A stretch of 53,476 nt of DNA, taken from positions 1 through 53,476 of IMG/VR virus record IMGVR_UViG_3300048574_000531. One strand, written 5' to 3'. Each line of letters begins with the position of its first letter. Positions within the stretch are counted from its first letter, which is position 1. The notes beneath the pieces were generated by a model that saw only the letters and a program-made list of their open reading frames with translations, searched no databases and had not been told where the DNA came from. Positions 8,798 to 26,998 of the stretch are shown in pieces. The stretch is from a virus. Its lineage: Duplodnaviria > Caudoviricetes. A program made the translations under genes and the position numbers.

Positions 8798-9190
8798 TCA
8801 AAGGATCTTGATAAGCATCCCGCTAGCTCCAATTTCCCAACCTCCAATGAGTCTGTCGTTACGAATCAGGAACCGATAAGGCTTGGCGCCGACGTATCCG
8901 CCAAAGCTGTTTTTTGCATTTACCGTCACATCTAAAAGAAATCCACCCTCAACCTTTCTGCCCTCAAAAGCGCTGCCAACTACGTATCCTCGATACACAG
9001 TACCGAAGCTATATCGCGCTGAGTCGGGGTCTTTTAGGTAAATACCGAAGAACTCTCTTACCGCCTTTTCCGCATCGACTTGGTAGACGGAAGCTCCATA
9101 ATCGGCGTTGCTGATTTGTTCAGGCGTTGGCTTCGAGGCGCAGCCAGAAAGCAATACGCACAAAAGGAACATCAGTGTCATTGATCGCAT
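8798..9190 (-). CDS. Moron lipoprotein
   Basis: Lipobox LSGC; LKDPDSARY...VNAKNSFGGYVG motif; extended -10 TGgTAGATT upstream (about 9220-9228). Confidence 0.85.
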   Translation of the reverse strand: MRSMTLMFLLCVLLSGCASKPTPEQISNADYGASVYQVDAEKAVREFFGIYLKDPDSARYSFGTVYRGYVVGSAFEGRKVEGGFLLDVTVNAKNSFGGYVGAKPYRFLIRNDRLIGGWEIGASGMLIKIL

Positions 9191-9285
9191 CTAGTACTCT
9201 CCCTGTTTGTGATACCAGCAATCTACCATCACAACGCCAGCGCCGAAACCCAGCGCAAAGCTGGGCTCGGGTTTCGCGCTTTGGA

Positions 9286-10275: not shown

Positions 10276-10342
10276 GACGTTGTTTACCTCGATAGTTTCG
10301 ACGTTACCCAAAGCCCTGGCCGTTGGCGCGACCGGGGCTTTT

Positions 10343-10495
10343 TCATGCCCGCACATTGCTGGCGTTTTTCTTCGCTTGAGCGATGATCTCGACTAGCTGC
10401 GCATTCATAGAGCGGTTTTGCTCCTTCGCTTGCGATTTCAGCCAATCCATCAGATCACCGGGAAAGCGGACTTGCGTACGAGCTGTGATCTGCAT
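10343..10495 (-). CDS. Arc/Mnt-family repressor (50 aa, not in ORF track)
   Basis: Translated by hand: MQITARTQVRFPGDLMDWLKSQAKEQNRSMNAQLVEII; RBS AGGGAG. Confidence 0.85.
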   Translation of the reverse strand: MQITARTQVRFPGDLMDWLKSQAKEQNRSMNAQLVEIIAQAKKNASNVRA

Positions 10496-10505
10496 GAGCC
10501 CTCCC

Positions 10506-10524
10506 TAGTGACACGGAGTCACTA
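10506..10524. promoter_or_regulatory. Palindromic operator between divergent Arc genes
   Basis: TAGTGAC-N5-GTCACTA; further AGTGAC half-sites at about 10541-10557. Confidence 0.65.
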
Positions 10525-10557
10525 TACATTAAATTTTATCAGTGACAAGGTAGTGAC

Positions 10558-10800
10558 ATGAAAGAAGATTCCTACCGATCCCAGTTCCGGCTCCCCTACT
10601 CCCTTTATGAGCAACTCAAGGCTTCTGCAGACCAGAATCAGCGCTCCGTGAATGCCGAGCTGGTTTCCGCCCTGCAAAACCACTACCGAGGGACGTCTTT
10701 TGGGATTCCCCAGGTCATTGATCAAGTCACCCAGCAACTTGATCAAACCAAGGGCGTATCGGTGGAAATCAGCATTTCCATTAAGCCCGATGTCACCTAA
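10558..10800 (+). CDS. Arc/Mnt-family DNA-binding protein
   Basis: RSQFRLPYSLYEQLKASADQNQRSVNAELV. Confidence 0.88.
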   Translation: MKEDSYRSQFRLPYSLYEQLKASADQNQRSVNAELVSALQNHYRGTSFGIPQVIDQVTQQLDQTKGVSVEISISIKPDVT

Positions 10801-10836
10801 CTGAAGCCCTGGCCTGCACGCCGGGGCTTCTTCGTT

Positions 10837-10992
10837 TCAGGCTGCTGCCTGCTCTTGTCGCCTTTTCTCTTCCGAGATCATGAAAACCATCTCTGCGGTC
10901 TGTGACCGATGGTTCTTCTGTGCCTGGCTCTCTAGCCATTTCTTTAGCTCCTCCGGTAAGCGCAGATTGAATTGCGGGTCTTTTCTACTCAT
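10837..10992 (-). CDS. Arc/Mnt-family repressor (51 aa, not in ORF track)
   Basis: Translated by hand: MSRKDPQFNLRLPEELKKWLESQAQKNHRSQTAEMV; RBS AGGAG. Confidence 0.88.
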   Translation of the reverse strand: MSRKDPQFNLRLPEELKKWLESQAQKNHRSQTAEMVFMISEEKRRQEQAAA

Positions 10993-11084
10993 TTGCCGCT
11001 CCTATAGCAAAATGCTTGGCTGCCGACACAGTAAAGCAGAATGCTTTATTGCTGTCTATAGCTTCGTGCTACACAATCCGAGCC

Positions 11085-11405
11085 ATGACCAGAGCAGACC
11101 TACAAGTGAATTTCCGCATGCCGGCCAGCCTGAAGGCGATGCTCGAAGCTGCGGCCAAAGAGAATCACCGATCGCTCACAGCGGAGCTGATTGCCCGCCT
11201 GGAAGCATCGTTTCGTCACAACGAACTGGTTGAAGAAACTGCGACCGCATCGGATGCCGTGGTAGAGCGCTCTATCCATGTTCAGAGAACAGATGGAGAG
11301 ATCGTCGTCTACACCAGTGACGCTATTAAGGAAGCGGTTATGAGAGCCTTTGAAAGTATCGAAGCAGGCCAGGGGCCAAAGCCTCGCAAGAAATACCCAA
11401 AGTGA
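11085..11405 (+). CDS. Arc/Mnt-family DNA-binding protein
   Basis: MTRADLQVNFRMPASLKAMLEAAAKENHRSLTAELIARL. Confidence 0.88.
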   Translation: MTRADLQVNFRMPASLKAMLEAAAKENHRSLTAELIARLEASFRHNELVEETATASDAVVERSIHVQRTDGEIVVYTSDAIKEAVMRAFESIEAGQGPKPRKKYPK

Positions 11406-11457
11406 TAACCGCCTGGTCAGGAAGCGGCCACGATCTTTATCCCGCAACGTCCGGGGG

Positions 11458-11508
11458 TGTCGATTCAATTCAACCATGGTCATTATGACCATAGTCGCCG
11501 AAGACGGG
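11458..11508 (+). pseudogene. Inverted fragment of a second ant-like gene
   Basis: Encodes RFNSTMVIMTIVAEDG versus RFNSTMVMITTVAGDG in Ant; differences mostly at third codon positions. Confidence 0.7.
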
Positions 11509-11536
11509 CGTTTGCTTTTGGGTTGTAGTGGGCGGT

Positions 11537-12295
11537 TTACGTCGGCGCCTCACGATGCCGCAGAATCAGCCGCACGCGGTCCCGCCAAGGGCCGCCGAAC
11601 ACTATCAGTTCGCTAGGGCGCCCATACAGATGGTGCAGCAGGAACGGCCCCTGCCCGAACACCTGCGAGTCCTCGCCCGGCAATGACGGATCGCCGGCCA
11701 GGTATATGCCGGCATGGTTCGGGTGAGCCGTCCTGCCTACGGACATGATGATCACGTCACCACGCTTTGCGCTGTCTACGCGGTAGAAGCCGGCAGCTTC
11801 GAAGTTCTGTTCGTAGAGGCTTGGGCCGTTCGACTTTTCCCACCAGCCATCTTCCCTATGGTATTTCGGGAATTCCACCCCCCATTGCCGGGCGTACCAG
11901 TCTGCGCAGACCTGCCAGCAGTCCTGCACGCCATGGACAAATGGGCGCCCCAGGAGAGGTACAGTCGTAACCGGCTCTAGTTGCCTCAAGTCGCCCTCTG
12001 GCCAGCTCAGGATGTACCAAGTTAGCCCCGAAGCATTGCACATGGCCACATCCGCATTGCTTGGCCTGCTGGTGGCGTCAGGGTGGCTATGTACCACCGC
12101 GATGATCTCCCCTTGGTCCTCCGCAGTTGCATATGCCTCTGGCGAGATACGGAACTCCTCATTGGGGTCAGTCGCCGTATTGGCGCATGGCAGATATTTC
12201 TGAGCTCGACCGATCTTTATCAGGAGCCCGCAACATTCTGCCGGGTAGCACGATGCCGCATGTTCGCGGATGGCCCGCTCGATATGTTTCAGCAT
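11537..12295 (-). CDS. Tail assembly protein K (JAB + NlpC/P60)
   Basis: YPAECCG...VHSHPD JAB motif; GRPFVHGVQDCW...HAGIY...HH NlpC domain. Confidence 0.95.
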   Translation of the reverse strand: MLKHIERAIREHAASCYPAECCGLLIKIGRAQKYLPCANTATDPNEEFRISPEAYATAEDQGEIIAVVHSHPDATSRPSNADVAMCNASGLTWYILSWPEGDLRQLEPVTTVPLLGRPFVHGVQDCWQVCADWYARQWGVEFPKYHREDGWWEKSNGPSLYEQNFEAAGFYRVDSAKRGDVIIMSVGRTAHPNHAGIYLAGDPSLPGEDSQVFGQGPFLLHHLYGRPSELIVFGGPWRDRVRLILRHREAPT

Positions 12296-12337
12296 TTCTT
12301 GTGTCCATGAAAAAGGGCGCCGAAGCGCCCTTGAAAG

Positions 12338-12958
12338 TTACGGTCTCTGCCATCGATCATTGGAAAGTATCGCCTCAGGCGGCCAGCCTGACCGAAGCCG
12401 TCCAAAAATGGTCTCGCTCTTTATTCCTGTTCTGGCTGCCCACTCTGCTACACATAAGGAAAGCCCAAAAGCAGTTATATGCCTGTTTCTGCTGGTATTG
12501 CGGTTCTGAGTTCGTCTTGATGCCCACCTGCAATTTCCAGGACGATAGTCGCCATCGTTATCTTCCCTGTCGATCGTAAGCCCATCCGGACACTCACCCA
12601 TATCTCGCAGGAAATTCTCGAACGACTCCCAGCGGGCACAGACCTTTATCCCGCGACCTCCGTATCTTGAGTATTCCTTTCTGCTGGGATTGGCGCAGCG
12701 ATCTATCATCCCTCTCCAGATTCTGTAGGTTCTGGTGTAGCTCTTCCCGTGCGTGGACGCGTTACTGATAAATATTTCTAGCTTCCTACATCCGCAGGAC
12801 TGGCTCTGGCCAGAGGTGAGCCCAGATGTACGCACGACCAGGCGTCTACCACATGCGCATTCACAGGCCCATGCTGTACGTCCGTCAATATTATCGGCCT
12901 TGTCAACAACCGTGAGCCTTCCAAACTTCATGCCTGAAAGGTCTTTTTTGATTGGCAT
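12338..12958 (-). CDS. HNH-type homing endonuclease moron
   Basis: DLSGMKFGRLTV...CECACG...SCGC; W.GM..RC; YGGRGIKVC..W..FENF..DMG...TIDREDND. Confidence 0.85.
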   Translation of the reverse strand: MPIKKDLSGMKFGRLTVVDKADNIDGRTAWACECACGRRLVVRTSGLTSGQSQSCGCRKLEIFISNASTHGKSYTRTYRIWRGMIDRCANPSRKEYSRYGGRGIKVCARWESFENFLRDMGECPDGLTIDREDNDGDYRPGNCRWASRRTQNRNTSRNRHITAFGLSLCVAEWAARTGIKSETIFGRLRSGWPPEAILSNDRWQRP

Positions 12959-12989
12959 ACTCGCTCCCAATGCGCGCCCTAATTGAGGA

Positions 12990-13041
12990 GCGCGCCAGGC
13001 CGGTTAGGGTGCCGGCTTTTCGGGAGCTACCCTAGACGCGC
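12990..13041 (-). ncRNA. c4-like antisense/leader RNA (element B)
   Basis: CTAGGG-tagct-CCCGAAAAGCCGG-caccctaa-CCGGC; loops complementary to downstream TTAGGG and GGGAGC (RBS); TGaTATAAT promoter just upstream. Confidence 0.75.
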
Positions 13042-13053
13042 ATCGTGATTATA

Positions 13054-13803
13054 TCAGGACCGTGCGATGATGCTCACTGCGGGAAATCCCGTAAATGGGA
13101 GTGGGTTTCCCTCGCCAAACCTGGGAATACAGCCAGTTGCGAGGCACCCATCACACTCATCTTTTTCAGGCGAATCCGTCAGGTTGCCGTCAATATCCCG
13201 ATACGGCCCGGTGTACGAGCAAACAGGTCCGCGATACTGGCCTGTCATTGCTTCATGGCAAAGTGTCGTGCACTGCCTGCCGATTTTCTCGTTTGCCACA
13301 TCACCAGGGGATGCCAATTCCCACGACACGGACTCCCCGTCCTCGCTGGTCTTCTGGTCCAGATACCAGACCTCTGTCGCCTCTTGGGTCGGGTCGGCAT
13401 CCGGGTTGCCGGACGGGAAATTCTCGGCGTCCAGATACTGCGCAAGCGTGGTGCGAACTGTCAGCCTGAATTGCAGCAGATCCTCGAACGCCAGGCACAG
13501 GGCCGTGATGCGCCCATTGACGTTGCCGGCGACGAAGCGAGGCCGCGCTGCCTGCCCATCGCTACCGGCCTCTATGCCCTCGATCTGGACGGGCCAGGCG
13601 GCGTACTCGTTGCCCTGCCACCATATCGCCTTGGCCGGCAATTCATCTGCGCTAGCCCCAGCAGCTACCAATTCCTCGGGGGTATGCGCAATTGCATGGC
13701 CGTGAAAGCGGATCACGTCCGCGCCGAAGTCAGAGCCGTCTAGTTCGAACAGGATGATCTCGGCGCCAGGCTCCAATTTCTGGAATTGAGTGACCAGGCT
13801 CAT
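13054..13803 (-). CDS. Minor tail protein L
   Basis: IWWQGNEYAAWPVQIEG; YLDAENF..GNPDADP; C-terminal Cys cluster and FTGFPA. Confidence 0.95.
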   Translation of the reverse strand: MSLVTQFQKLEPGAEIILFELDGSDFGADVIRFHGHAIAHTPEELVAAGASADELPAKAIWWQGNEYAAWPVQIEGIEAGSDGQAARPRFVAGNVNGRITALCLAFEDLLQFRLTVRTTLAQYLDAENFPSGNPDADPTQEATEVWYLDQKTSEDGESVSWELASPGDVANEKIGRQCTTLCHEAMTGQYRGPVCSYTGPYRDIDGNLTDSPEKDECDGCLATGCIPRFGEGNPLPFTGFPAVSIIARS

Positions 13804-14138
13804 GGTGCGAATGCCTCATTGAACGTGACGGTGATGGTGTAGACCCCTGCGCCATTGCCGGTTAACTGGTATTCCTCGGCTCGGTAGAGGCCGAGATCGC
13901 CCAAAGGCGGCGTCCAGAGAAAGGATTTGTATCCTCGGTGGCTATCGAGAAAGTCGCGTATTTCACGGGTGACCGCCTCCTTGCCGACGAAGGTCAGGTT
14001 CCACGATTGGCTCTTTCCATTGATGCCGTCACCTACTACCTGCGCATAACCATCGCCGAACTGAGAAGTCCTGACCCGTTGTGTAGTGGTGCCCTGCGCC
14101 TCTGTTTTGGGGCACCAGACGAACGTCTCAATTGCCAT
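13800..14138 (-). CDS. Minor tail protein M (distal tail)
   Basis: ETFVW.P...QFGDGYAQ...GIN...FL..HRGYKSFLWTPP. Confidence 0.95.
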   Translation of the reverse strand: MAIETFVWCPKTEAQGTTTQRVRTSQFGDGYAQVVGDGINGKSQSWNLTFVGKEAVTREIRDFLDSHRGYKSFLWTPPLGDLGLYRAEEYQLTGNGAGVYTITVTFNEAFAP

Positions 14139-14143
14139 TGTGA

Positions 14144-16582
14144 TTACCCATTGATAGCGCGACCGATTGCGCCGTCTCGGCGTAGATCGCGGGACAGGAG
14201 CTCCCGGTATTTCTGCTCCACAAAGGCTCCTATCTCGCGCCCGAACTGGTTGGCCGTCGCGTCATCCGACGAGACTTGAGATGTGCCATCGCTGGAGATG
14301 TTGACCTCGACGTTGATCTGAGTACCCCCACCGACCACCCCGTCGAGCTTGGCCCTTACGCCAAGGGAGCCGTCCGAACCGCGAGTCAGAGGCATGATCG
14401 CCTCCGGGCCGGCCTCACCCATCAACCCCGTACCATTGGCGAACGGGAACAGTGTCGGCTGACTCACTATGGAGTTGGTGAATGCCCCACCCTTGGCAAA
14501 CATCTGTATGCCGTCTGCCCATGCGCCGCCCTTTGCCTGCGGGAAATAGGTAGAGGAGTAACCCGCCGTGGTTGAGCCCGCGGATGTCGCTCCGCCCGTC
14601 CATAACCCCGCCACGGTGCTGACCGCGCTGGAAAGAATGCCTGTGGCGGCTTGGCGGGCGGCGATGCGCGCCATATCAGCCAGCACGCTCTTGGCAAAGT
14701 CGGAGAACGATAGCTTGCCGGTCGTGGCGAATTGCACGATGGCATCCTCCATGCCGCCAAAGGCGTTCTCAAACAGACTTTTGGTCTGACCCGCTACGTC
14801 CTTGGCGCTTTCGAGGTAATTCTCGTATGCCGATTTGGCACCTAGCGTCCAATCGGATTGAGCCTCGTCCAGTTGAGCGTAGTAATCCTGCTGCATGTCG
14901 ATACGCTGCTCGAGGTGATCCCTGTAAAGCTCGAGTTGTTTTTCATAACCCTGATCGTCGATATCGCCCGCCGCACGCATCTGAGCGGCTTGATTGATCT
15001 GGTCCTGATAATCAGCGATAAGCGCTCGCTGAGAGCGCAGCCGCTCTTGAGCCTTGTCACTCAGACCGATACCGGCCAGCTCATCGCCGTACTGGCGCGA
15101 TTCCGACCCCCTGGACGCGGAGAGGGACTTCTCCAGCGTGGAGATCGCCTCTTGGGCTTTTTTCTGCTTTTCAAGGCTGCTGACTGTTTCCAGCAACGAC
15201 TTGGCATACTCAAGCTGGCTGTCGGTCGCGCCCTTGACGCGCAGGTCGTATACCAGCACCTCATCAGCGCTCATGCCCCACACCTTGGCGGCACGCTCCA
15301 GGGCACTGATCTGGCCGTTGATCGCTTCGGCTTCTTTCGCGGCGGCTGCAGCTGATGCCTTGGCAGCTTCTGCTGCTTTCGCATAATCAGCACCGGTTCC
15401 CTGCCCCGAAGTTGTGGCATCTCCCGCTGCAGCAGCGGCTTCGGCAGCAGCCTGCCCGGCTTTTTGCGCCTGCTCATAGAACTGCTTTATTGCCTCGCCA
15501 GCAAGCGGCTTGTTCAGTGTTTCTTCGATATGCTCCTGAGCGCCATCGATGATGCCCTTTGCATCTTTGGCATACTGCTCCAGGGATGCTATCTGTGCTG
15601 AGTTATCTATGCCGGGCAGCTTGTCTTGCGCTTTGAGAAGGAAGCCGAAGGTTTCTGCAATTGCCAGTTGCACACCGGAAAATGCAACGACGATTCCATC
15701 AGCTGCTAGATCGAATACTCTCTTGACGCCATCGGCTGCGGATGCCAAAAAAGCGATGGCGGAGACGGCCTTTTGTACCGCATCAGGCACCACCTTACCC
15801 AAGCCGCCGGCCTTCTCTGCGCTCTCCAGAAACTGATTGCCCATTGCTGTCAGCACGGGGGCCAATTCGACAGTGAGTTGCTTACCTATCCCGTCTGCTA
15901 GCAGGCTGAAGTTGCTCAGCGCATCGCCGGCCATTTCGACCTTCGCCGAATCGACGGCAGACAGTTTGATGCCGAAAATCTCCACTTGCCGGGATGCCTC
16001 GGCAAGGGTCTCAGAGTCCAGCATCTGAATAGCGGCGGCGTTTTTAGCGCCGAAGAGCGTTGCCGCAACCGCTGCGCGCTCGGCGACAGGAATGTTCTTC
16101 GCCAGCGCCTCGTTGATCGTCGATATCCGCTCGTCGAGCGGCATGGCGGCGACTGACTCATAGCTGAGCCCCAGGCGGTCGAATGCCTGCACCTGCACTT
16201 TGCTGCCTTGGGCAGCCTTGCCAAGCGATACTTCGAGTTTCTGCCCAGCCGATTCTAACTGCTCTAGGCCGATGCCAGACAGTTCCGCCGCGCGCGTTAG
16301 GGTGCCTAGGCTTTCTGTTGTCGTGCGCAGCCGGACAGCCATATCGGCCTGGTCGCCGATCACGTCCAACTGCCGCGCCACCATTGCAGTCAGAGCGGCA
16401 GCGGCGATGCTGGCCCCGGCGCCGATGCCAACACCAAGCGCTGAGCCTGCGCTCTTTGCCGCCTTGGATATTTCAGCCATGCGCTTCTGCGATTCGCGAG
16501 ATGCCTTATCCAGCGGACCGGTAAATCCGCCGATTTTGGCTATAAGGTCGAGCGTCAAAGTGCCCAGTGATTGGCTAGCCAT
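14144..16582 (-). CDS. Tape measure protein
   Basis: About 812 aa, Ala-rich; LGTLTLDLIAKIGGF N-terminus, lambda TMP C-terminal GLMGEAGPEAIMPL. Confidence 0.95.
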   Translation of the reverse strand: MASQSLGTLTLDLIAKIGGFTGPLDKASRESQKRMAEISKAAKSAGSALGVGIGAGASIAAAALTAMVARQLDVIGDQADMAVRLRTTTESLGTLTRAAELSGIGLEQLESAGQKLEVSLGKAAQGSKVQVQAFDRLGLSYESVAAMPLDERISTINEALAKNIPVAERAAVAATLFGAKNAAAIQMLDSETLAEASRQVEIFGIKLSAVDSAKVEMAGDALSNFSLLADGIGKQLTVELAPVLTAMGNQFLESAEKAGGLGKVVPDAVQKAVSAIAFLASAADGVKRVFDLAADGIVVAFSGVQLAIAETFGFLLKAQDKLPGIDNSAQIASLEQYAKDAKGIIDGAQEHIEETLNKPLAGEAIKQFYEQAQKAGQAAAEAAAAAGDATTSGQGTGADYAKAAEAAKASAAAAAKEAEAINGQISALERAAKVWGMSADEVLVYDLRVKGATDSQLEYAKSLLETVSSLEKQKKAQEAISTLEKSLSASRGSESRQYGDELAGIGLSDKAQERLRSQRALIADYQDQINQAAQMRAAGDIDDQGYEKQLELYRDHLEQRIDMQQDYYAQLDEAQSDWTLGAKSAYENYLESAKDVAGQTKSLFENAFGGMEDAIVQFATTGKLSFSDFAKSVLADMARIAARQAATGILSSAVSTVAGLWTGGATSAGSTTAGYSSTYFPQAKGGAWADGIQMFAKGGAFTNSIVSQPTLFPFANGTGLMGEAGPEAIMPLTRGSDGSLGVRAKLDGVVGGGTQINVEVNISSDGTSQVSSDDATANQFGREIGAFVEQKYRELLSRDLRRDGAIGRAING

Positions 16583-16967
16583 ATTTTCTCCAGACATAAA
16601 AAACCGCCCTGAGGCGGTTCCAAGCTTTTGCGCGGCCTATCTGGCCAAACACAGCTCTATTCGATCAGTGAGATCTACTAGCGATTTCATGGCAAGATCT
16701 GGATTGGCACCAGGTCATGCGCCGATTGGGTTAAATCCATCACCTGGCGGAGTGCTGTGCCTGATGCGCTTGATCGCTAAGCATCCCGAACTGTCGCAAA
16801 ACTGTCGGCAAACTGAACCGACTCATGATCAAGAGAGACCGCGCCGCATTCTTCACTCGGAAGATGAGGGAAGGCGGCAAGATCATCAGGGCAACCGTCA
16901 AAAGCATTACACCGAGCTTGACCACCCAAGGGTATCTCTCAGCGTCGAGATCGACTGGTAGACGCCA

Positions 16968-17270
16968 TCAGTGCCACGTCGCCATAGCCTGCTCCAGGCT
17001 TACCGCCGATTCTTCCTCATGCGGCATGAAATCGGACAGCCTGAAGCCGCCGTTCTTGCTGTGTGAGTTGGCATATAACGTGGCGAGCAATGCGGAGCTT
17101 CGCTCGACCCTCATTCCCACATGCAGCGAACCGCGCTTACTGCGGTACTTCGCCCAACTTAGGAACTCAGGATAGCTGAGCCGTTGCTGTGCCTCAGCGA
17201 TAGTCCGACCGCCGATACCGCACAGCACCAACTCATGCCAGAGCTCGTCTAGCTCGCTGAGCTCGGCGTC
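16968..17270 (-). CDS. Tail assembly chaperone GT extension (reached by -1 frameshift)
   Basis: The -1 frame after GGGAAAG reads DAELSELDELWHELVLCGIGGRTIAEAQQRLS. Confidence 0.88.
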   Translation of the reverse strand, partial: DAELSELDELWHELVLCGIGGRTIAEAQQRLSYPEFLSWAKYRSKRGSLHVGMRVERSSALLATLYANSHSKNGGFRLSDFMPHEEESAVSLEQAMATWH

Positions 17271-17656
17271 TTTCCCAGGCTGTTCACCTCGCCGATTACC
17301 GCCAGCAGGGCCACGGTCAGGTTGCCGTCCAGTTCGCCGCGCTCGGAGTCGGCCTCGCCGGTAATGTCCTCAGGTGTAAACACCCGCTTTCCTTCCTCGT
17401 CGCAGATGCTGGCAGCGATCCGGCCGGCCACGCCATCGACCTTCCCGGTCAGTGCTCGCAGGTCGGAGACGACAGAAGAGTACGACAGCGGTCGCACGTA
17501 GACGGTGGCTGTCAGTTCTTTCTCTTCCCTGGTTCCAGGTATCTCCTCTCCGTTTTCATCTTCTTCGTACGATACCTGCATCCAGGTGATCTCGCGCTCA
17601 ACCGGGGTGCCCCTGAAGGCGCCGACCTGCTTGAGGGTGTCGATGGTCAGCTTCAT
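17249..17656 (-). CDS. Tail assembly chaperone G
   Basis: Between major tail and tape measure; ends LGK with slippery G GGA AAG at 17270-17276. Confidence 0.9.
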   Translation of the reverse strand: MKLTIDTLKQVGAFRGTPVEREITWMQVSYEEDENGEEIPGTREEKELTATVYVRPLSYSSVVSDLRALTGKVDGVAGRIAASICDEEGKRVFTPEDITGEADSERGELDGNLTVALLAVIGEVNSLGKTPSSAS

Positions 17657-17665
17657 AGGGACTCC

Positions 17666-18187
17666 TTATGCGGTCTTGCGAATCCAGGCGGAACCGCCCG
17701 AACGCTGGATGGTGGCGGCGGTGGTCACAACCGAGTTGGCGGCGAAGTCGAACGGGAAGTCGCTAACGTAGCCGCGGAAAACGAACCAGGTTCGAGTGGC
17801 CGGAAGGTCGAAGTCCCAGTCGCCGTTACTGTCCTGCTCTGCAGCCGGCACGACGTCCTTACCGTCTGACCAACCCACCGCAAATGCGATGCTTTGATCC
17901 TCCTGATCGTCCGATTCGGAGAGTTGATATAGCCGGTAGTGCGATTCGTTGCGTGGATCGGCGTTCAGGGTCAGGGATGCCTGGCCCGGGGTGCGCAGAC
18001 CGCGCAGATAGCTGCGCACGGTCGCGCTCAGACAGGTGTCTTCGATCTGGTCTGCCGGGTTGCCACCCGGGCTGAATGCGGTAGCGCATTCGATCTCAAT
18101 TACTTCGTATTGGTCGGTCGGGTCACCGCTCGAGTCCAGTTCGCGAACCAGCGCGTAGACCTGCGTGCCCTGGGCAAGAATGCTCAT
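17666..18187 (-). CDS. Major tail tube protein
   Basis: [11 protein letters not shown]...IEDTCL...GLRTPGQAS...[11 protein letters not shown]...IQRSG. Confidence 0.92.
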
Positions 18188-18282
18188 GTCGTCTCCTCGG
18201 ATTTTCATGTCCGGGGAGGCGTGGTGATCAGAGGGGCCTTTCGGCGTGTCTGCTCAGCGTGCCCGGTGTAGTGGGTTTTGGT

Positions 18283-18378
18283 TTATTCGTGCTCTTTCAA
18301 CCAGCGCTCCCAGGCTGCAATTGCAGCCTTGGCGGCGCGGATAAGACTGCGGTGCAGCTCTTTGGTGATTTCGCTCAA
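18283..18378 (-). CDS. 31-aa leader peptide upstream of major tail gene
   Basis: TTG start with GGAG RBS; MSEITKELHRSLIRAAKAAIAAWERWLKEHE. Confidence 0.5.
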   Translation of the reverse strand: MSEITKELHRSLIRAAKAAIAAWERWLKEHE

Positions 18379-18385
18379 AGTGGTG

Positions 18386-18437
18386 CTCCAGAAACGACGA
18401 AGCCCGCACTAGGCGGGCTTGGGGTCGTCGGGGTTGG
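18386..18437 (-). terminator. Terminator shared with 22367-22417
   Basis: AAGCCCGC-ctagt-GCGGGCTT hairpin followed by CGTCGTTTCTGGAG. Confidence 0.75.
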
Positions 18438-18438
18438 G

Positions 18439-19011
18439 TTAGGCTGCGTCGAGGCCGAAGGTCAATTGAAGCTGGTTGATGTACTCCAGCAATTCCTCCC
18501 CAGGGCTGAACCATTCGCCATGCTCGCGCAAACCAGTAAACCGCGCGTGTAGCTCTCGCTCCGCACCGAAGGATCCTGGTACAGAGGCTATAAGTTCGAG
18601 GTGTTCGCCAGCTCCAGTTTCAAGCTGATGTAGGCGATCCTCGACATTCATACTCGAACCGATCTTGATCGATCCACGACTGTTCCGAATGAAGTAAACC
18701 ATGCGGCGCTTCACCTTCCCGTCACCGTCGATCATCAATTCGTTTTCCCCTACGCCAGATAGCTCCAAAGCGTAGCGACACAAGCCCGCGACGCGCGAGT
18801 CTTCGCCAGAGGCTTTGATGCAAAGATCGATCTCGTTGATCGCTTCGAGGACTGCCATCTCATCGAATAGGCCGACAGTTCGGACGAGGCTGCATTTCAG
18901 GAAGACAGCGGCTATCCGATCTATTAGGTACTCATAGGCATCGGTCGCCTTCAAAGCAGCGTCCAGCCCATCAGCCAATCTCTTAATCTCGAAAACATTA
19001 CTGTCGCGCAT
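18439..19011 (-). CDS. GIY-YIG / T5orf172-domain protein
   Basis: VYFIR...IKIG.S.NVEDRL.QLETG...ERELH.RF...GEWF. Confidence 0.85.
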   Translation of the reverse strand: MRDSNVFEIKRLADGLDAALKATDAYEYLIDRIAAVFLKCSLVRTVGLFDEMAVLEAINEIDLCIKASGEDSRVAGLCRYALELSGVGENELMIDGDGKVKRRMVYFIRNSRGSIKIGSSMNVEDRLHQLETGAGEHLELIASVPGSFGAERELHARFTGLREHGEWFSPGEELLEYINQLQLTFGLDAA

Positions 19012-19012
19012 C

Positions 19013-19103
19013 TGTCGTTACCTCGCTCATCAGGCGAATAGGAACGCAGCCGGGGCGAATGGATGAGCAACATCCGCCGTTCGAGGGCGACTCTAGGCTG
19101 CGT
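19013..19103 (-). ncRNA. c4-like leader RNA (element A, copy 1)
   Basis: 91-nt direct repeat of 23177-23267 with one mismatch; ACGCAGCC/GGCTGCGT closing stem. Confidence 0.75.
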
Positions 19104-19151
19104 TTTTCGGTTGCCTTGCGGCAGAAATTGAAACCCCAGCGAGTGCCGGGG

Positions 19152-19520
19152 TTATCGAAGGGATATCCAGTCCACGTCCATGGTGGACCGATAATTCATG
19201 GTTACAGGGTCGCGTGACTCTCCGCCGTAGCGAGTGATGTAGCAATTCAGCTCAATTGCCCCTTCAATGGCAGACAATGTGCTTCTAGTCTGCGATGCGC
19301 TGTCGCCGTATACATCTACTTGAATCGTATGCCCTTCTGCGTCTGGACGCCCAGCCAGATAATTCTCCGGCTTGCCCGCTACTACCTGCCAGACGGCATA
19401 GGGCTTCTGCACATTTTGCGGCGCCATGCCAAACATGAAAAAACGAACAGGATTGCTTCCGAGTAATGCCGTGACTCCAACATTGGCTGCGCACAAAGCA
19501 AAGATTGGGGGCGTATTCAT
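19152..19520 (-). CDS. Tail terminator (DUF3168-like)
   Basis: FG.APQ...PYAVWQVV.G.PENYL..RPD...QVDVY. Confidence 0.85.
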   Translation of the reverse strand: MNTPPIFALCAANVGVTALLGSNPVRFFMFGMAPQNVQKPYAVWQVVAGKPENYLAGRPDAEGHTIQVDVYGDSASQTRSTLSAIEGAIELNCYITRYGGESRDPVTMNYRSTMDVDWISLR

Positions 19521-20017
19521 ATTTGCACAGCTTTCTTTTGAGCCCGCTTGATGGCGCGATCGATGGCCTTCTGGTACTCGGTGACGAAGGTATTGGTGGC
19601 GGCATCTATGTTCTGCTCGAGTGCGGGGCGCATGAAAGGCTGCGCGCGCGCATGCTCGTGCCCGAACTCGACAAATGCCCAGTAGCGAGTATCGCCACCG
19701 GGCCCGCCTGGCTCGGTTCCTTTTGGCCTTGACTTAGGAATTCGGGCGCCGCCCAGAACCCCAACGCGGAAACCAAGGTCGCCAGTTCGCTTGAACAGCC
19801 TGCCATTCCATCGCAATGTGATGTTCTGGCTGATGTCTGTTGCGGTGTCGGGATCGTCCAGGCGCTTGGCGTTGGCTTGCGCTGCTGCGCTAACCACCTG
19901 GGCGGCCTTGCGTAAAGCCGCTCGCCCACCCTTGCGCTTAACGTCATAGCTGACCGACTCAAGTTTGCCTAGCAAGCTATCCAAGCCGGTGATGGCAAAT
20001 TCGATGGTGTCAGCCAT
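19517..20017 (-). CDS. HK97 gp10-family tail-completion protein
   Basis: GLDSLLGKL...AALRKAA...YWAFVEFG...AQPFMRPA. Confidence 0.9.
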   Translation of the reverse strand: MADTIEFAITGLDSLLGKLESVSYDVKRKGGRAALRKAAQVVSAAAQANAKRLDDPDTATDISQNITLRWNGRLFKRTGDLGFRVGVLGGARIPKSRPKGTEPGGPGGDTRYWAFVEFGHEHARAQPFMRPALEQNIDAATNTFVTEYQKAIDRAIKRAQKKAVQI

Positions 20018-20627
20018 GGAACCTCCGAAACGCAAAGCTAGTGATCCCTTCCCGGCCAAGCTCGGATTCGGCCTGGTTCATTTCTGCCAGAGCGAACCCT
20101 TGACGCTCGCACCAACCGATGAAGCCATGGAGGCTGAAATACCAGCAATGCTCGCCCGGCTTGTAGTGCTTGGAGTGCAGGCAATCCAACTGGTCGCGGT
20201 AGATCGGCATGGATACGAACAACCATTCGCCGACATGATCCAGCAGCTGCTCCGGCTCCGGGATGTGCTCCAGGCTGTCCCAGCAGGTCACGGCCTCGGC
20301 ATGGTGTTTGTAGGGGTCGTAGTAGCGATCCTGAGCCTTGAGCCATGCCACGGCCTCCGGGTTCACGTCATAGCCCATCGCCTCGGCCTCAGTGACGAAG
20401 CGGCCACCGCCGATGCCGATATCCACCACCTGGCCGGAGAAGTGCCTGCGGACCAGATCGATACGTGCCCGGGTCAGCGCTTCGCCCATCGGGGTGGCAT
20501 CGAGGCCCTGGTATTTCTCGAAGTACGGCCCGGTGTAATCCATAGGAGGGCGCGGGTGAAAACCCATGCCCAACTCCTCAGACCAGAGCAGGCAGTCGGT
20601 CATGCCTTGAGGAAGCGAAACGGTCAT
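20010..20627 (-). CDS. Class I SAM-dependent methyltransferase
   Basis: VVDIGIGGG motif I, GYDVNP, VTCWDSLEHIPEP. Confidence 0.88.
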   Translation of the reverse strand: MTVSLPQGMTDCLLWSEELGMGFHPRPPMDYTGPYFEKYQGLDATPMGEALTRARIDLVRRHFSGQVVDIGIGGGRFVTEAEAMGYDVNPEAVAWLKAQDRYYDPYKHHAEAVTCWDSLEHIPEPEQLLDHVGEWLFVSMPIYRDQLDCLHSKHYKPGEHCWYFSLHGFIGWCERQGFALAEMNQAESELGREGITSFAFRRFHG

Positions 20628-20694
20628 TCGGACTCCACCTAGAAATTCAGGCAATAAAAAACCCGCCGAAGCGGGTTTTGTATGTAGGACGCGG

Positions 20695-20910
20695 CTATTC
20701 CTTTGACGCCATGTGCAGTATGTCATACAGGGAGCCGTTTATTTTCACAAGCTCACCGTCTTCAAAATTCATCTCTGCACTGCCACGCATAGATATCTTG
20801 TATCCGGCTATCTCTACAGTGACTGTCTCGCCTTTGCTGATTCGCTCAAACATTTCTACCTGATCTTGATTGTACGGATCAGCCTCTAATGTAAACCGGA
20901 TAAACGCCAT
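20695..20910 (-). CDS. Hypothetical moron protein (71 aa, AT-richer)
   Basis: Own RBS GAGG, upstream promoter/c4-like leader, downstream terminator at 20657-20680. Confidence 0.65.
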   Translation of the reverse strand: MAFIRFTLEADPYNQDQVEMFERISKGETVTVEIAGYKISMRGSAEMNFEDGELVKINGSLYDILHMASKE

Positions 20911-20943
20911 CTCAACAACCTCTAGCTGAGCCTCAATGTGGGC

Positions 20944-20992
20944 GTGGCAGGCGGTGAGGTTGCCGCTTTTCGGGCCGTCGCCCTAGCTGCAC
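20944..20992 (-). ncRNA. c4-like leader RNA (element C)
   Basis: CTAGGG-cgacgg-CCCGAAAAGCGG-caacctca-CCGCCTG; TTGCCG-N17-TAGTAT promoter directly upstream. Confidence 0.72.
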
Positions 20993-20999
20993 TGACATA

Positions 21000-21815
21000 C
21001 TACAATCGGTCCGCCCAAGCGGCAAAGCGTTGGTCATGATCGGCGATCCTTTTGTCGCAGGTATGCTGTTTCAGCGTGCATCGGCAGAAGTTGTCCGGCA
21101 CCGCGAAGGTGATGCGGGACAGGTCCATGCATTTGTCAGTGATATGTTCTGGCGAGTTAAAGCCGCCCTGCCCTCCGCAGATAATCAAGGCTGGCACTTT
21201 GGCGGCTATGGCGGCCGGTACGATCCAGCCAATGCCGCCGATTACCGCAGCGGCGTGTTGGAGCAGAGCTAGCAGTTGCTCAACCGGCAACTCGCCTTTG
21301 TGAAACTGGATGTCAGCAGGCGGCAGTGGATCAAGCGCCCATTCCTTTCCTGGCTCAAGATCGGCCACGGACACCACTTTGTAGCCCCTGTGGCGCATCT
21401 CGGCGGCAGCACTGGCGATGTATTCGGGCAGAGGATTGCGCGAGTCTGCCCGCCACTCAGCGCGCACCGTGGCAGGCCGCACCAGCGCATAGCGGCCCTC
21501 GACCGGAGAAGGTCCGAAGTCTGGTAGGTCGAACTCGCCCGGCTCGCAACGGAACGCCTTGCGCAGCCCCTGAACGATGGGCATTTGCCCGTAATGGATG
21601 CGCATCTGGCCGACGCCTACAGGGCGGTGCCATTCTTGCTCGCGCTGGATGTTGCGAAGCTGGGTGCGCAGTTGCGTGGTTGGTCGGACGCACTTAACTG
21701 GCAGGTCTTTCAGCAATTGCGGCCAAGGCGTTTCGACGTAGCAGTTCGGGTATTTCTTCAGAAAGGCGCGGATATAAACGCTGTCGCCCAAGCCTTGCAT
21801 CGACTTAATCAGCAC
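21000..21815 (-). CDS. Glycosyltransferase, GT9 (heptosyltransferase)-like
   Basis: N-terminal QGLGD; C-terminal LLALLQHAAAVIGGIG...AAIAAKVPALIICGG. Confidence 0.75.
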   Translation of the reverse strand: MLIKSMQGLGDSVYIRAFLKKYPNCYVETPWPQLLKDLPVKCVRPTTQLRTQLRNIQREQEWHRPVGVGQMRIHYGQMPIVQGLRKAFRCEPGEFDLPDFGPSPVEGRYALVRPATVRAEWRADSRNPLPEYIASAAAEMRHRGYKVVSVADLEPGKEWALDPLPPADIQFHKGELPVEQLLALLQHAAAVIGGIGWIVPAAIAAKVPALIICGGQGGFNSPEHITDKCMDLSRITFAVPDNFCRCTLKQHTCDKRIADHDQRFAAWADRL

Positions 21816-22167
21816 GAGCGACCTTCATTTGCCGGCAGGCGTACACCACGCGACAGGCCTGGTAGACCTCCATAATCAGGTCTTCCATGCCGACCAAGCC
21901 CATACGCTCCGCAACGTGACTAACGGATGGCTGACGCCCTTCCTTGGATAGCGCAAAGAAGCAATTCCATGCCTCCCTGTCCAGGGAGGCGCGGGCATAA
22001 CTCAGGAGCGATTCCCGGCTGACCTTCCATGGCACCGTCTGTGCGCTGCCTGATTCGTATTGGCACAAGATTTCACAGGCAACACTGCGCGCTTCGCCCT
22101 CGCCTTCCGGCCAGAACTTCACTGATTCGCCATCGACCTCAACATGAATAACTGCCTTGCTCGTCAT
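21805..22167 (-). CDS. Hypothetical protein
   Basis: ORF coupled to the GT gene, GGAG RBS. Confidence 0.55.
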   Translation of the reverse strand: MTSKAVIHVEVDGESVKFWPEGEGEARSVACEILCQYESGSAQTVPWKVSRESLLSYARASLDREAWNCFFALSKEGRQPSVSHVAERMGLVGMEDLIMEVYQACRVVYACRQMKVARAD

Positions 22168-22171
22168 CTGC

Positions 22172-22360
22172 TCATTTCTCCGCAATTCGATTAAATGCGT
22201 CCCTTGCAGCGATACCGGTCGCCACGCATGCGCCATGTATTTCCAGCGTGTCGAACTGGCAGCGCTTGCAAGCCCCGCACTCTCGATAGCTGAGTACCGC
22301 GCCAGCCTTTGAACGAACCGCCTGCCGATCTACCGTTGCCCCACCGCAACTGCATTGCAT
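22172..22360 (-). CDS. Small Cys-rich (Zn-ribbon-like) protein
   Basis: CSCGG...CGAC; RBS GGAGG. Confidence 0.6.
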   Translation of the reverse strand: MQCSCGGATVDRQAVRSKAGAVLSYRECGACKRCQFDTLEIHGACVATGIAARDAFNRIAEK

Positions 22361-22418
22361 AGATGCCTCCAGAAACGACGAAGCCCGCACTTGGCGGGCT
22401 TTCGTTCGTCGGGTTTGG

Positions 22419-23177
22419 CTAGGCAGCTTGCGGATAGATCAGGCGGAGCTGTCCGTAGCGCTTGTATGCCGCAGTGCAGCGCGACACGAAGTCCTGGTAG
22501 TCCACGCAGCCATTGGCCAGAGCGGTGATGGCGATCAGTTGCGCCTCAACTGCCCGGAGTGCGTCATCCGCCAGGTATTGGTGAATCTTCTCCCCTGCTC
22601 TGCAGCGAGATTTTGCAGCTTCGTAAACCGGCTTCGGCAGCGCAACGCCATATACCCATTCGGCAGTAATTTTTCCGAACAGCGGCGGCGTTCCGCTGGC
22701 ATGCCCGGTAAACGGCATGCTGGTCAGCCGGCCGAGCGCCCTGTAGAACGGGTCGGCGAATCGCTTCTCCCATGTTGCCGCATCGGGCAGAGTCAGCAGG
22801 GCAACGATTTGCTCGTCGCTGTAGGTGATGGACTGCGACCGGATCATGGCCTTGATGTGGCGGTCGCATGCGCGGGCGAACTTGGGAGAAAGCCAGCGAG
22901 CGAACTCGATGGCAAGCTCTGGATGAATCCAGGTGCCGCCATAGCGGCCTTTGCGCACCTCCACTAAAAGGTCGGGATTCCGGCTTTTAAAAATCTCTGG
23001 ATCTTGCTCGGCAAGTTCGTCCAGAGCCTCGCGGATATACTCGGCGGTCTGCTCCGTATCGAGCCAGTGCTGCGGCCTTTTCCCGAAGCGCTTGGCTGCT
23101 TCGGTCGCATGAATCCACCCGTCACTAGTGAACCGGATAGCCTGGCCTTCGAAATCCATCGGGACGATGTTGCTCAT
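22419..23177 (-). CDS. KilA-N domain protein with P63C-like C-terminus
   Basis: DGWIHATEAAKRFGKRP.HWL...GGTWIHPELAIEFARWLSPKF; WEKRF...FY...FGKIT..WVY. Confidence 0.88.
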   Translation of the reverse strand: MSNIVPMDFEGQAIRFTSDGWIHATEAAKRFGKRPQHWLDTEQTAEYIREALDELAEQDPEIFKSRNPDLLVEVRKGRYGGTWIHPELAIEFARWLSPKFARACDRHIKAMIRSQSITYSDEQIVALLTLPDAATWEKRFADPFYRALGRLTSMPFTGHASGTPPLFGKITAEWVYGVALPKPVYEAAKSRCRAGEKIHQYLADDALRAVEAQLIAITALANGCVDYQDFVSRCTAAYKRYGQLRLIYPQAA

Positions 23178-23267
23178 GTCGTTACCTAGCTCATCAGGCG
23201 AATAGGAACGCAGCCGGGGCGAATGGATGAGCAACATCCGCCGTTCGAGGGCGACTCTAGGCTGCGT
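23177..23267 (-). ncRNA. c4-like leader RNA (element A, copy 2)
   Basis: Repeat of 19013-19103; loop GAUGUUGCUCAU is the exact complement of the first 12 nt of the KilA-N CDS. Confidence 0.78.
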
Positions 23268-23293
23268 GTTTGGCGCCCTTGCGGGCGAAGTCG

Positions 23294-23650
23294 TTACTGG
23301 CCGTCGGTTAGGCCATCGGAACAGCGCAGACGCCATTCACGGCGAGCGGTGGCATCGGTCTCTGCGCTGGTGATGTTGTAAACCCGGCCATCCCAAAGAA
23401 TTCGCCAGGTGTAGAGTTCCAGTCGATCCACCGGGAACCATCGGCAGTTGATGCGCGCCGTGGTTTCTGCTTGCTTGGCATCGGCTGCGATCAGTTCTCG
23501 ACCGGCCCCAGTCAACACCTCAGCGGGAACATCTGGACGACCTGAAAACAGAACTGTCTCCCAGGTGGTTGTCACTTCTCCCGTCACAGGATCTTGTGTA
23601 TGCACCTGTCGCTGGAACTCGATGCGGTGGCGCATGCGGTAGGCGAGCAT
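23294..23650 (-). CDS. Head closure protein (head-tail joining)
   Basis: MRHRIEFQ...DPVTGE...W...WRILWDGRVYNI. Confidence 0.9.
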   Translation of the reverse strand: MLAYRMRHRIEFQRQVHTQDPVTGEVTTTWETVLFSGRPDVPAEVLTGAGRELIAADAKQAETTARINCRWFPVDRLELYTWRILWDGRVYNITSAETDATARREWRLRCSDGLTDGQ

Positions 23651-23651
23651 G

Positions 23652-23858
23652 TCAGTCCCCGTAGAAATGATCTTTCACGGACTCGGGATGCCAGGCCCTG
23701 GCCGCATTGCCAGAGTAGGTTTTCGGGCACGCTTTGATGTCGTGATCCTTCGCACCGCAATAGGTGCAGCGGAGATTTGCGCGCCTGGCACTTCCCGAAT
23801 AGGTGCTTGGGCAGAGCGCTTTCGTATGTGCACTACTTCCGCAGTAGGAGCAGTACAT
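23652..23858 (-). CDS. Double CCHC zinc-knuckle protein
   Basis: CSYCGSSAHTKALC and CTYCGAKDHDIKAC, both CX2CX4HX4C. Confidence 0.8.
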   Translation of the reverse strand: MYCSYCGSSAHTKALCPSTYSGSARRANLRCTYCGAKDHDIKACPKTYSGNAARAWHPESVKDHFYGD

Positions 23859-24179
23859 TTAAACCCCCAGCCCGCAGCGGTACGGCATCAGCTTCACCTC
23901 GGCCGCCTTGCGCAGCGTCTCGATTTCATCAGGAGCGGCCTGGTAGTTCGCCTGGAGCAGCAGCAGAACGCCTACAGCCACGCTCGGCGGAAGTCCTGGC
24001 TCGCTGCTGGCTGCCTCGCTGCTCTCTTCGCAGTTGCACAGACCATCCAGGGATTGCCGCCACATGAACTGGCAGGCTTCGTCTTCAGCGCCATCCAGCA
24101 GCAACTGGATCTTGGCGTCATCCGAATCGTGGATCACGTCCAGAAATGCCTTGGCCGTCTCAAGCGGGATCAGGCTCAT
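23859..24179 (-). CDS. Head-tail connector (gp6/gp15-like)
   Basis: LETAKAFLDVIHDSDDAKIQLLL..A...VLLL....Y...LMPYR. Confidence 0.9.
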   Translation of the reverse strand: MSLIPLETAKAFLDVIHDSDDAKIQLLLDGAEDEACQFMWRQSLDGLCNCEESSEAASSEPGLPPSVAVGVLLLLQANYQAAPDEIETLRKAAEVKLMPYRCGLGV

Positions 24180-24726
24180 TCAGCGCTTCCTCTAATGGCC
24201 GGCGAACGAAACAGGTCAGCGCCGTTTCGCGGGTGCAGTTGATAATTTCGATGCTTGGGTTGTTGCGCTTCAGCCGCTCGAACTCGGCCGGCCATTCCGC
24301 GATCTTCCCGGCGCTCCCAAGCCCTCTCGGATGGTCTCCGTGCCAGTGCGATTGGCTATTGGTTTTCTGCATGTCATAGCCCAGCAGGATGATGCGCTTG
24401 GCGCCCTTGGCGATGGCCAAGGAAACCGCACCGCCTCCGGAGTTCCTGTAGTGCTCGATTCGTGCCGTCTTGATGCCGAAGCGGTTGGCGTTGAGGGTGA
24501 GTAGTTCGCCCTGGAAGGAGATCTTTGCCTCTGCGGCGTATCGCTCCCACCAGACCTTATCCATAGCCCATAGCGCATCAGCCCAGGGTGTCAGTCGGAA
24601 TGTGGTGTTCGTGCAGACGGACGCCCTCTTCGGCGCGGCGTCTCGCCACTCACGGACTCGCCCGCAGTCTTCAGCGGTGAGGCTTGGGCCGCTGGCGATG
24701 CAGACGGCGACTCGCCAGCCGATTGC
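24160..24726 (-). CDS. Cst-II/Maf-like transferase domain, probably translated by -1 frameshift from 24591-24878
   Basis: Open frame lacking a start codon before VCIASGPSL; later NSGGGAVSLA...GAKRIILLGYDM and IINCT. Confidence 0.75.
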   Translation of the reverse strand, partial: AIGWRVAVCIASGPSLTAEDCGRVREWRDAAPKRASVCTNTTFRLTPWADALWAMDKVWWERYAAEAKISFQGELLTLNANRFGIKTARIEHYRNSGGGAVSLAIAKGAKRIILLGYDMQKTNSQSHWHGDHPRGLGSAGKIAEWPAEFERLKRNNPSIEIINCTRETALTCFVRRPLEEALNEPDPA

Positions 24727-24878
24727 TTTGGGGTTTCATCTTCGATGATCCGGCACAGGCCGCGGGCTTCGAGCTGTTTGGCATGGCGAAGAGAAGCCGG
24801 ATATGGTTTGCTCTTCGCGTTCCTAACTTGGCCGCCATCCTCGTAGGAGCGCAGCGGTTTGATCATGACTTCGGACAT
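24591..24878 (-). CDS. Small post-capsid protein (frameshift donor)
   Basis: GAGG RBS; contains C CCA AAG at 24726-24732; low-complexity Pro/Ser/Arg tail after it. Confidence 0.8.
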   Translation of the reverse strand: MSEVMIKPLRSYEDGGQVRNAKSKPYPASLRHAKQLEARGLCRIIEDETPKQSAGESPSASPAAQASPLKTAGESVSGETPRRRGRPSARTPHSD

Positions 24879-24920
24879 AAGCACCTCGAAATCAGGGCCG
24901 GTTGCCCGGCCCCTTACCGG

Positions 24921-26995: not shown

Positions 26996-26998
26996 GGG

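Follow-up and report, generated by a model that had tools for sequence, protein, structure and literature searches.

The int-alpA RNA motif (Rfam RF02996), typed by Rfam as a small RNA (sRNA), takes its name from its location beside integrase or alpA genes. A comparable arrangement of closing stem and two hairpins is found in the c4 RNA of phages P1 and P7, whose action in trans and processing by RNase P are said to have been established by Citron and Schuster in 1990 and by Hartmann and co-workers in 1995. In T-even phages, the ribosome-binding sites (RBSs) of the selfish homing-endonuclease genes I-TevI, segB and mobE, which lie within phage operons, are occluded by RNA structure (PMC2988022). 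The int-alpA motif itself was catalogued by Weinberg et al. 2017 (PMC5737381), whose main text leaves its description to the supplements; the full-text searchable literature gave no functional account of int-alpA or RF02996, the 2017 supplement may mention pairing of the loop with the proximal tail, and the literature on c4 and related control contained nothing on the motif. Here we describe four leaders of this kind, called B, A1, C and A2, in the IMG/VR virus record IMGVR_UViG_3300048574_000531, a complete provirus record of 53,476 bases (the whole stretch analysed, called the window below) that is kin of Pseudomonas phage D3 and its relatives. The leaders stand among the minus-strand head and tail genes at 12,000-24,000. 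They belong to one RNA family, fold as three-way junctions, and their variable second loop covaries with its targets across relatives; we consider it probable that they limit translation of the genes behind them through pairing of this loop with the RBS.

The window was scanned against Rfam over its whole length at gathering score, and positions 9000-27000 also at E<=10. B and C exceeded the RF02996 gathering score of 35.8 bits, with 60.3 and 40.8 bits respectively. A preliminary description of this DNA had called all four leaders c4-like. Membership of the C4 families is not supported, as no C4, c4-2 or c4-a1b1 match was obtained in the whole window at gathering score or in 9000-27000 at E<=10; in control searches of phage P1 the same tool detected both C4, with 68.8 bits, and c4-a1b1, with 51 bits. 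A1 and A2 had no Rfam match in 9000-27000 at E<=10. Their relationship to the canonical leaders is evident from models applied in both directions. R1, the A-type covariance model built in this analysis, gave B as its highest-scoring site in the window apart from the A copies (14.3 bits, E 0.035) and scored a canonical tandem element in phage R656 at 33.6 bits. Conversely, RF02996 gave sub-threshold scores of 19-27.5 bits on A-type relatives, namely 27.5 bits on F10, 24.3 bits on L252 and 23.6 bits on D3 and P7869; for the elements of F10, D3 and P7869 the E values, calculated per genome, were 2e-5 to 3e-4. From these reciprocal matches the earlier claim of one family of four three-way-junction leaders holds, in the form of two canonical members and two copies of a divergent subtype, and the A type appears, from sequence and model scores, to be a divergent, uncatalogued int-alpA subtype in Pseudomonas phages. 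Further sub-threshold int-alpA matches were seen in phage D3 (AF165214, 14757-14816, plus strand, 30.9 bits) and P7869 (PV173770, 49365-49411, plus strand, 33.1 bits), which would bring these genomes to two elements each, against four in this provirus.

All four elements lie on the minus strand where the preliminary description had put them (window coordinates below refer to that strand unless marked plus), and each has a closing stem and two hairpins, H1 and H2; the isolated A, B and C elements each fold as a three-way junction. H1 is closed by GGG/CCC in B, GGGC/GCCC in C and GAG/CUC in A. B and C carry the junction nucleotides CUAG / CGAAAAG / CCUG and display the int-alpA consensus of 8-base-pair closing stem, UA, 4-base-pair hairpin, GAAAA, second hairpin and CCUG, followed by a 3' tail that ends in AgGG and is the complement of the second loop. 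They differ from the catalogued motif in that they precede an HNH gene and an orphan open reading frame (ORF) in a tail-gene module, not int or alpA, and in that the Rfam model does not include the site near the Shine-Dalgarno (SD) sequence, a third hairpin or the -10 element. Of the junction nucleotides, the A type retains C-UAG, CGAA and CC-G, and it is distinguished by a GAAC junction, a longer H2 (8 base pairs) and an extra upstream GCAA hairpin.

Relatives of the canonical leaders were collected from viral contigs by a core pattern in which hairpin 1 and the junction were set and no constraint was put on the second loop or any downstream sequence; it gave at least 119 loci, reduced to 92-93 unique elements with B and C included. 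All counts on canonical and A-type relatives are among the matches listed. Because loop length and site spacing are too variable for MAFFT or covariance-model alignment, loops and targets were compared by scripted own-versus-cross matching. The H1 loop is conserved (UAGCU in 47/92) and the H2 loop highly variable, with 67 distinct strings in 92 elements. A match of at least 6 nucleotides (nt) to the own leader occurs in 68 of 93 elements, versus 5.5% when loops are cross-paired between unrelated members and 8.3% when the downstream sequence is shuffled, and two separate own matches of at least 5 nt occur in 65/93 versus 4.3%. With a looser control that admits all different loops, the corresponding figures are 67/92 versus 10% and 64/92 versus 9.8%. 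Both sites are present for 47 of the 67 distinct loops. The proximal site, equivalent to the AgGG tail conserved in the Rfam model, begins 11-20 nt past H2 in 58 of the 64 two-site members. In the RBS window, taken as -22 to +3 around a start codon that was picked heuristically and without regard to the loop, own loops match over at least 6 nt in 30/81 (cross 3.8%) and over at least 5 nt in 62/81 (cross 16.6%). This SD-proximal site lies inside a short local stem ending just ahead of the start codon in 52 of 53 testable members, and in 44 of the 53 it is mostly unpaired, in the hairpin loop. By these comparisons the H2 loop is predicted to pair with sequence at or near the RBS, with covariation throughout the family.

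The preliminary description had proposed that both loops pair near the RBS. The part concerning the H2 loop is borne out by the relatives; the part concerning the H1 loop is not, given UAGCU in 47/92 elements and a match of the kind seen in B in only one of the 51 relatives with that hairpin, namely B itself. Every complementarity quoted there is present in the DNA, and two are larger than described: in C, ACCUC/GAGGU extends to CAACCUC/GAGGUUG, and A2 adds GUUGCUCAU/AUGAGCAAC. Strong support for pairing nevertheless comes from the relatives and not from the window matches alone. Taken by itself, the window shows leader matches modestly above chance: among 2000 shuffled leaders each, the observed match length was equalled by 28 for C, 121 for the B H2 loop, 61 for the B H1 loop, 24 for A1 and 0 for A2.

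Leader C (20930..20993) is a full fit to the two-site pattern of the canonical relatives. Its irregular closing stem (helix P1, 20992-20986/20948-20944) joins H1 (20983-20972) and H2 (20966-20951), the latter with the loop CAACCUCA at 20962-20955. The proximal site UGAGG (20935-20931) pairs with CCUCA, and the third hairpin, CUCAGC/GUUGAG (20911..20930), holds in and beside its loop the SD-proximal site GAGGUUG (20922-20916), which includes the SD and is the complement of CAACCUC. The gene behind is an ORF of 71 amino acids (20695..20910, AUG at 20910) that had no Pfam or PHROG match and no tblastn match in phages; a terminator follows at 20677-20654, and a TAGTAT -10-like hexamer lies upstream of the leader at 20997..21002.

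Leader B (12977..13042) is built likewise, with closing stem 13041-13035/12996-12990, H1 (GGG uagcu CCC) at 13032-13022, the GAAAA junction at 13021-17, H2 at 13016-12999 with the loop CACCCUAA at 13011-13004, and a proximal site UUAGGG (12983-12978) complementary to CCCUAA of that loop. The SD of its gene, GGGAGC (12963..12968), is the complement of GCUCCC in the loop and 3' arm of H1 (13027-13022), a pairing that is present in the predicted minimum-energy fold of the full leader B and that may be a local stand-in for the missing RBS site; the close relatives of B (L029, L050, L058 and L113) carry both target sites. The gene encodes an HNH endonuclease of 206 amino acids (12338..12958; phrog_374, E 2.4e-71, no Pfam match) and is followed by a terminator hairpin at about 12331-12310, noticed through a partial rsmX alignment and the repeat search. 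A TATAAT -10-like hexamer stands at 13048..13053, its 3' end 7 nt ahead of the first base of the closing stem. Elsewhere in the window, 21 nt at 16286-16306 of the plus strand, inside an ORF of 817 amino acids, are 81% identical to the B H2 region; they repeat the loop sequence, not the target, and are probably a chance match.

The hexamers before B and C have counterparts in the relatives: in 38 of 92 elements the end of a -10-like hexamer falls 9-14 nt ahead of CUAG, compared with 1-9 in seven control windows. From their sequence and this enrichment the two in the window are putative promoters, and by their position transcription would begin within the first bases of the closing stem. An element at the very 5' end of its transcript would also suit a different function, in which the three-way junction serves chiefly as the place where a protein, a ligand or an RNase binds or processing occurs, or else stabilises the 5' end, the loop complementarities being secondary or incidental. 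The conservation of H1 (with its UAGCU) and of CUAG/CGAAAAG/CCUG goes far beyond base-pairing needs and speaks for such a function. As the main role we regard it as improbable, for it leaves unexplained the joint change of the H2 loop and two sites in 47/67 loop types as well as compensatory A-type changes that alter a codon (see below); it could exist in addition to pairing.

Leaders A1 and A2 form a direct repeat of 95 nt, 19013-19107 and 23177-23271, with 98% identity; both have H1 as GAG ucgcc CUC and an H2 of 8 base pairs with the loop UUGCUCAUC. A1 (19013..19125; R1 88.2 bits, fold z -3.0) comprises the GCAA hairpin (19123-19112), closing stem (19102-19096/19051-19045), H1 (19093-19083) and H2 (19078-19054, loop at 19070-19062). 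Its target GAUGAGC (19031-19025) pairs with GCUCAUC and abuts the SD GAGG (19024-19021). The gene behind (18439..19011) encodes 190 amino acids with a T5orf172/MUG113 domain (Pfam PF13455, 3.8e-9; PF10544, 4.3e-8). A2 (23177..23288; R1 90.1 bits) has a GCAA hairpin (23287-23274) whose stem differs from that of A1, a closing stem at 23266-23260/23215-23209, the H2 loop at 23234-23226, and the same target GAUGAGC (23195-23189), again pairing with GCUCAUC; its second target, AUGAGCAAC (23177-23169), complementary to GUUGCUCAU, lies at the start codon. A2 precedes a gene for an antirepressor-type regulator of 252 amino acids with KilA-N and P63C domains (22419..23177; Pfam PF04383, 7.9e-21, and PF10546, 4e-13; phrog_1136 and phrog_129). 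The four gene calls of the preliminary description, HNH, GIY-YIG (here T5orf172), KilA-N and an unknown gene, were thus confirmed. The window ORF at 21805-22236 was compared with a protein annotated as 'anti-CRISPR protein' in phage P7869 and showed no similarity.

The A type is found in PACT201, R656 and other phages, in D3 ahead of orf11, which encodes a KilA-N protein, and in F10, Ostro and CF53a, with Rha or 'antirepressor' genes behind it. A scan of genome contigs with the KilA-N protein yielded no confirmed relative, and the matches of a first A-core pattern scan were mostly due to chance, only L140 and L207 being real, both canonical with a GAG/CUC first hairpin. In nine distinct A-type sequences 96.9% of the cells of the structure, the upstream GCAA-tetraloop hairpin included, are paired, versus 30-45% in slid controls; four pairs are changed on both sides, a number reached by 0/500 shuffles, and the G-U pairs fit this strand only. 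The A-type loop is better conserved than the canonical one, and its variants and their targets go together here as well, except in the mismatched L332 and L335. The loop GCUCAUC occurs with GAUGAGC or GGUGAGU; GUUCAUC with GGUGAAC on the SD side and GAUGAAU at the start codon, where the G>A change turns codon 2 from Ser to Asn; and GUCCAUC (L252) with GGUGGAC and GAUGGAU. A duplex of at least 8 base pairs, G-U allowed, is possible in 24 of 26 distinct combinations of A loop and leader, versus 0.9% with foreign loops.

The repetition of A1 and A2 also extends to the other end of their cassettes, where the genes are followed by a common 3' end of 52 nt (18386..18437 and 22367..22418, 90% identical) with a long, terminator-like hairpin and then CGUCGUUUCUGGAG, from which the structural gene that comes next takes its SD. 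The two cassette ends are thus conserved around unrelated genes. Together with the many associated genes of homing-endonuclease type, this would be expected of repeats acting at the DNA level in recombination or homing, without any role for RNA structure. We think that this has very little chance of being the explanation: the stems are kept by compensatory changes and one-strand G-U pairs, the covariance models score the minus strand, and loop and target covary in the mRNA sense. The identical 95-nt leader before unrelated genes, SD included, rather makes the target sites and the SD part of the leader unit.

A moron is a promoter-gene-terminator cassette inserted in a conserved phage module. 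In the window, terminator-like hairpins are present behind all four genes, the flanking genes encode tail protein L (13054-13803), a tail completion protein (19152-19520) and a head completion protein (23294-23650), and -10-like hexamers precede B and C. A putative promoter (at B and C), leader, targets, SD, gene and terminator would make up one cassette, inserted between structural genes of a D3-like prophage. The idea that each leader is tuned to the RBS of its own moron is not sustained, as targets and SD lie within the cassette, the A1/A2 leader is identical before unrelated genes, and the B loop matches its RBS window over 4 nt. For the genes behind canonical leaders, 90 unique proteins were predicted with heuristic start codons, of which 17 were dropped by eye as duplicates, near-duplicates or truncated copies; the 73 scanned and the two of the window make 75. 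Counts per family, which may overlap because one protein can match several families, are 10 for DUF1376, 6, 5, 3 and 3 for HNH families, 2 for LAGLIDADG, 2 for Endonuclease VII, 1 for GIY-YIG, 2 for Dam and 2 for integrases, the gene class to which int-alpA partly owes its name. In L006, L014 and L016 the canonical element is immediately preceded by sequence with an end similar to the 3' part of a tRNA or tmRNA gene (GGTTCGAATCC...), which would put these elements at the edge of an integrated element; this may be the context behind the family name. Positions 10277-10345 of the plus strand gave a near-threshold match to the P22 sar RNA (RF00262; 39 versus 43 bits, E 6.8e-5 in the 18-kilobase search), the 3' half of which is a strong terminator hairpin and which is antisense to an ORF of 356 amino acids at 9286-10356.

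Many canonical leaders thus precede HNH, LAGLIDADG, Endonuclease VII or GIY-YIG genes, which recalls the T-even homing-endonuclease genes. The T4 structures are simple local hairpins, relieved by transcription from a late promoter that starts inside the hairpin (PMC2988022); here the loop would come from a conserved three-way junction some way off, and the whole element is preceded by the presumed promoter.

We propose the following mechanism. A small three-way junction, made of the closing stem, the conserved H1, the junction nucleotides CUAG / CGAA(A)A / CC(U)G and H2, would present the variable H2 loop as antisense determinant. This loop could pair with either of two copies of its target, the proximal one just 3' of the element and the second at the SD or start codon of the gene behind, which in canonical members would be offered in the loop of the third hairpin. 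Pairing at the ribosome site would limit translation, and the proximal copy would compete for the same loop. Within this proposal we lean slightly towards a mainly intramolecular two-state switch, favoured by the fixed spacing and the permanent linkage of element and targets; action also or mainly in trans, as in c4, is only a little less probable, being favoured by the display of the target in a loop, by a pairing loop much more diversified than the remainder of the element, and by the A-type copies that lack a cis target.

The parallel in layout that had been drawn with P1 c4 (C4, RF01695; c4-a1b1, RF03163; clan CL00128; P1 sequence NC_005856) is confirmed. In both systems an RNA with closing stem and two hairpins stands upstream of its target in the same orientation. 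The partner of the c4 H2 loop b', UCACUAAC, is b2, GUUAGUGA, directly adjoining the icd SD, just as GAGGUUG of C includes the SD and GAUGAGC of A abuts GAGG; the junction strand a' of c4 pairs with a2, 3 nt past the c4 3' end, and the leaders described here too have a target just behind the RNA. The class of downstream gene overlaps that of the A type (antirepressor). In contrast, there is no model or sequence similarity between c4 and these leaders, c4 has a closing stem of 17 base pairs and theirs is short, and c4 uses a' and b' for two different targets, with upstream a1/b1, whereas here one loop faces two copies of one target; no a1/b1-like element was found with the c4-a1b1 model at E<=10. 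The leaders resemble P1 c4 in layout without being homologous to it.

Carried to its full extent, the parallel would mean that the leaders are cut out as stable small trans-acting RNAs, like P1 c4, whose orthogonal loops keep genes silent within the lysogen or target phages that are co-resident or superinfecting. The layout just described agrees with this, and so does the display of the SD-proximal site in a hairpin loop, a geometry that permits loop-loop (kissing) pairing, which is typical of antisense RNAs. So do the 67 distinct loops in 92 elements with nearly invariant H1 and junctions; the match of own loops to own leaders in the window over 6-9 nt, compared with 3-5 nt to the other leaders; the KilA-N, Rha or annotated antirepressor genes behind A-type leaders; and the sRNA type of the family in Rfam. 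Nineteen of 56 unique A-type elements, moreover, are followed by a second element in tandem and have no cis target nearby. The tandem consists of an A-type element, then a canonical-type element within about 30 nt, then the gene, as in L247 (phage YMC11/02/R656, 1201-1342), L243 (PACT201), L301, L265 and others; RF02996 scores the second element at 36.3 bits in L247 and 33.9 bits in L301. On the other side, homology to the C4 clan is absent, a single loop serves both sites unlike a' and b' of c4, and the constant site distance (11-20 nt past H2 in 58/64) is as expected of intramolecular pairing. When GRTGAGCGRRG was used as a pattern for more distant targets of the A loop, the extra matches in D3 and R656 all fell inside coding sequences, in orf44 and the minor tail protein M gene, and in the window the sole match was A1's own site. 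We therefore rate free trans-acting RNAs as the rather unlikely account, behind the limitation of translation by loop-RBS pairing proposed above. In L265, a viral contig with such a tandem leader, positions 1865-1939 of the minus strand also gave a sub-threshold match to the SymR antitoxin RNA (41.8 bits, gathering score 61 bits).

Several points weigh against loop-RBS pairing as the general function of these leaders. The H2 loop of B matches its RBS window over 4 nt only, and the start-codon site of A2 is missing in A1. The folding energies of the full leaders are unremarkable (z -1.6 to +0.25). A two-hexamer sigma-70 scan called no promoter at B or C, which have no good -35, and no promoter was seen for A1 and A2. 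Among A-type elements, L332 and L335 have mismatches between loop and site, most matches represent conservation rather than covariation because the members are closely related, and the tandem copies lack a nearby cis target. The canonical relatives were sampled with a pattern fixing hairpin 1 and the junction. Four RNA runs with the same species label had 0, 0, 2 and 0 reads over 12300-23700; the prophage is uncovered in them, so that they are no test of expression. Family membership, structure and loop-target covariation are observed; repression of translation, processing, the promoters and the transcript ends are what we infer.

As far as checked, the SD-proximal site, the third hairpin, the promoter position, the association with cassettes of homing-endonuclease or antirepressor type, and the A subtype are new. 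The int-alpA motif has so far been without an assigned mechanism, and covariation of loop and RBS, third hairpin and promoter position give it a specific model open to mutational tests. The motif becomes tied to a class of genes inserted in phage genomes, namely those for homing endonucleases, DUF1376 proteins and antirepressor-type proteins, and the A type emerges as an unrecognised subtype common in Pseudomonas aeruginosa phages, D3 and F10 included. If the pairing acts in trans, the hypervariable loops would provide many orthogonal specificities, of relevance to interactions between phages and as natural parts for RNA control. At its most speculative, and with a chance that we put below that of the c4-like alternative, int-alpA might be a widespread programmable RNA control module of phages with loop specificities numbering in the dozens, the leaders of which are released as small RNAs acting in trans between cassettes and co-resident phages. 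The A-type RNA, target-less copies included, would then keep in check the antirepressor-type genes (KilA-N/Rha) carried by other prophages or by phages entering the cell, an RNA-level immunity similar to immI of P1 and P7 and of independent origin.

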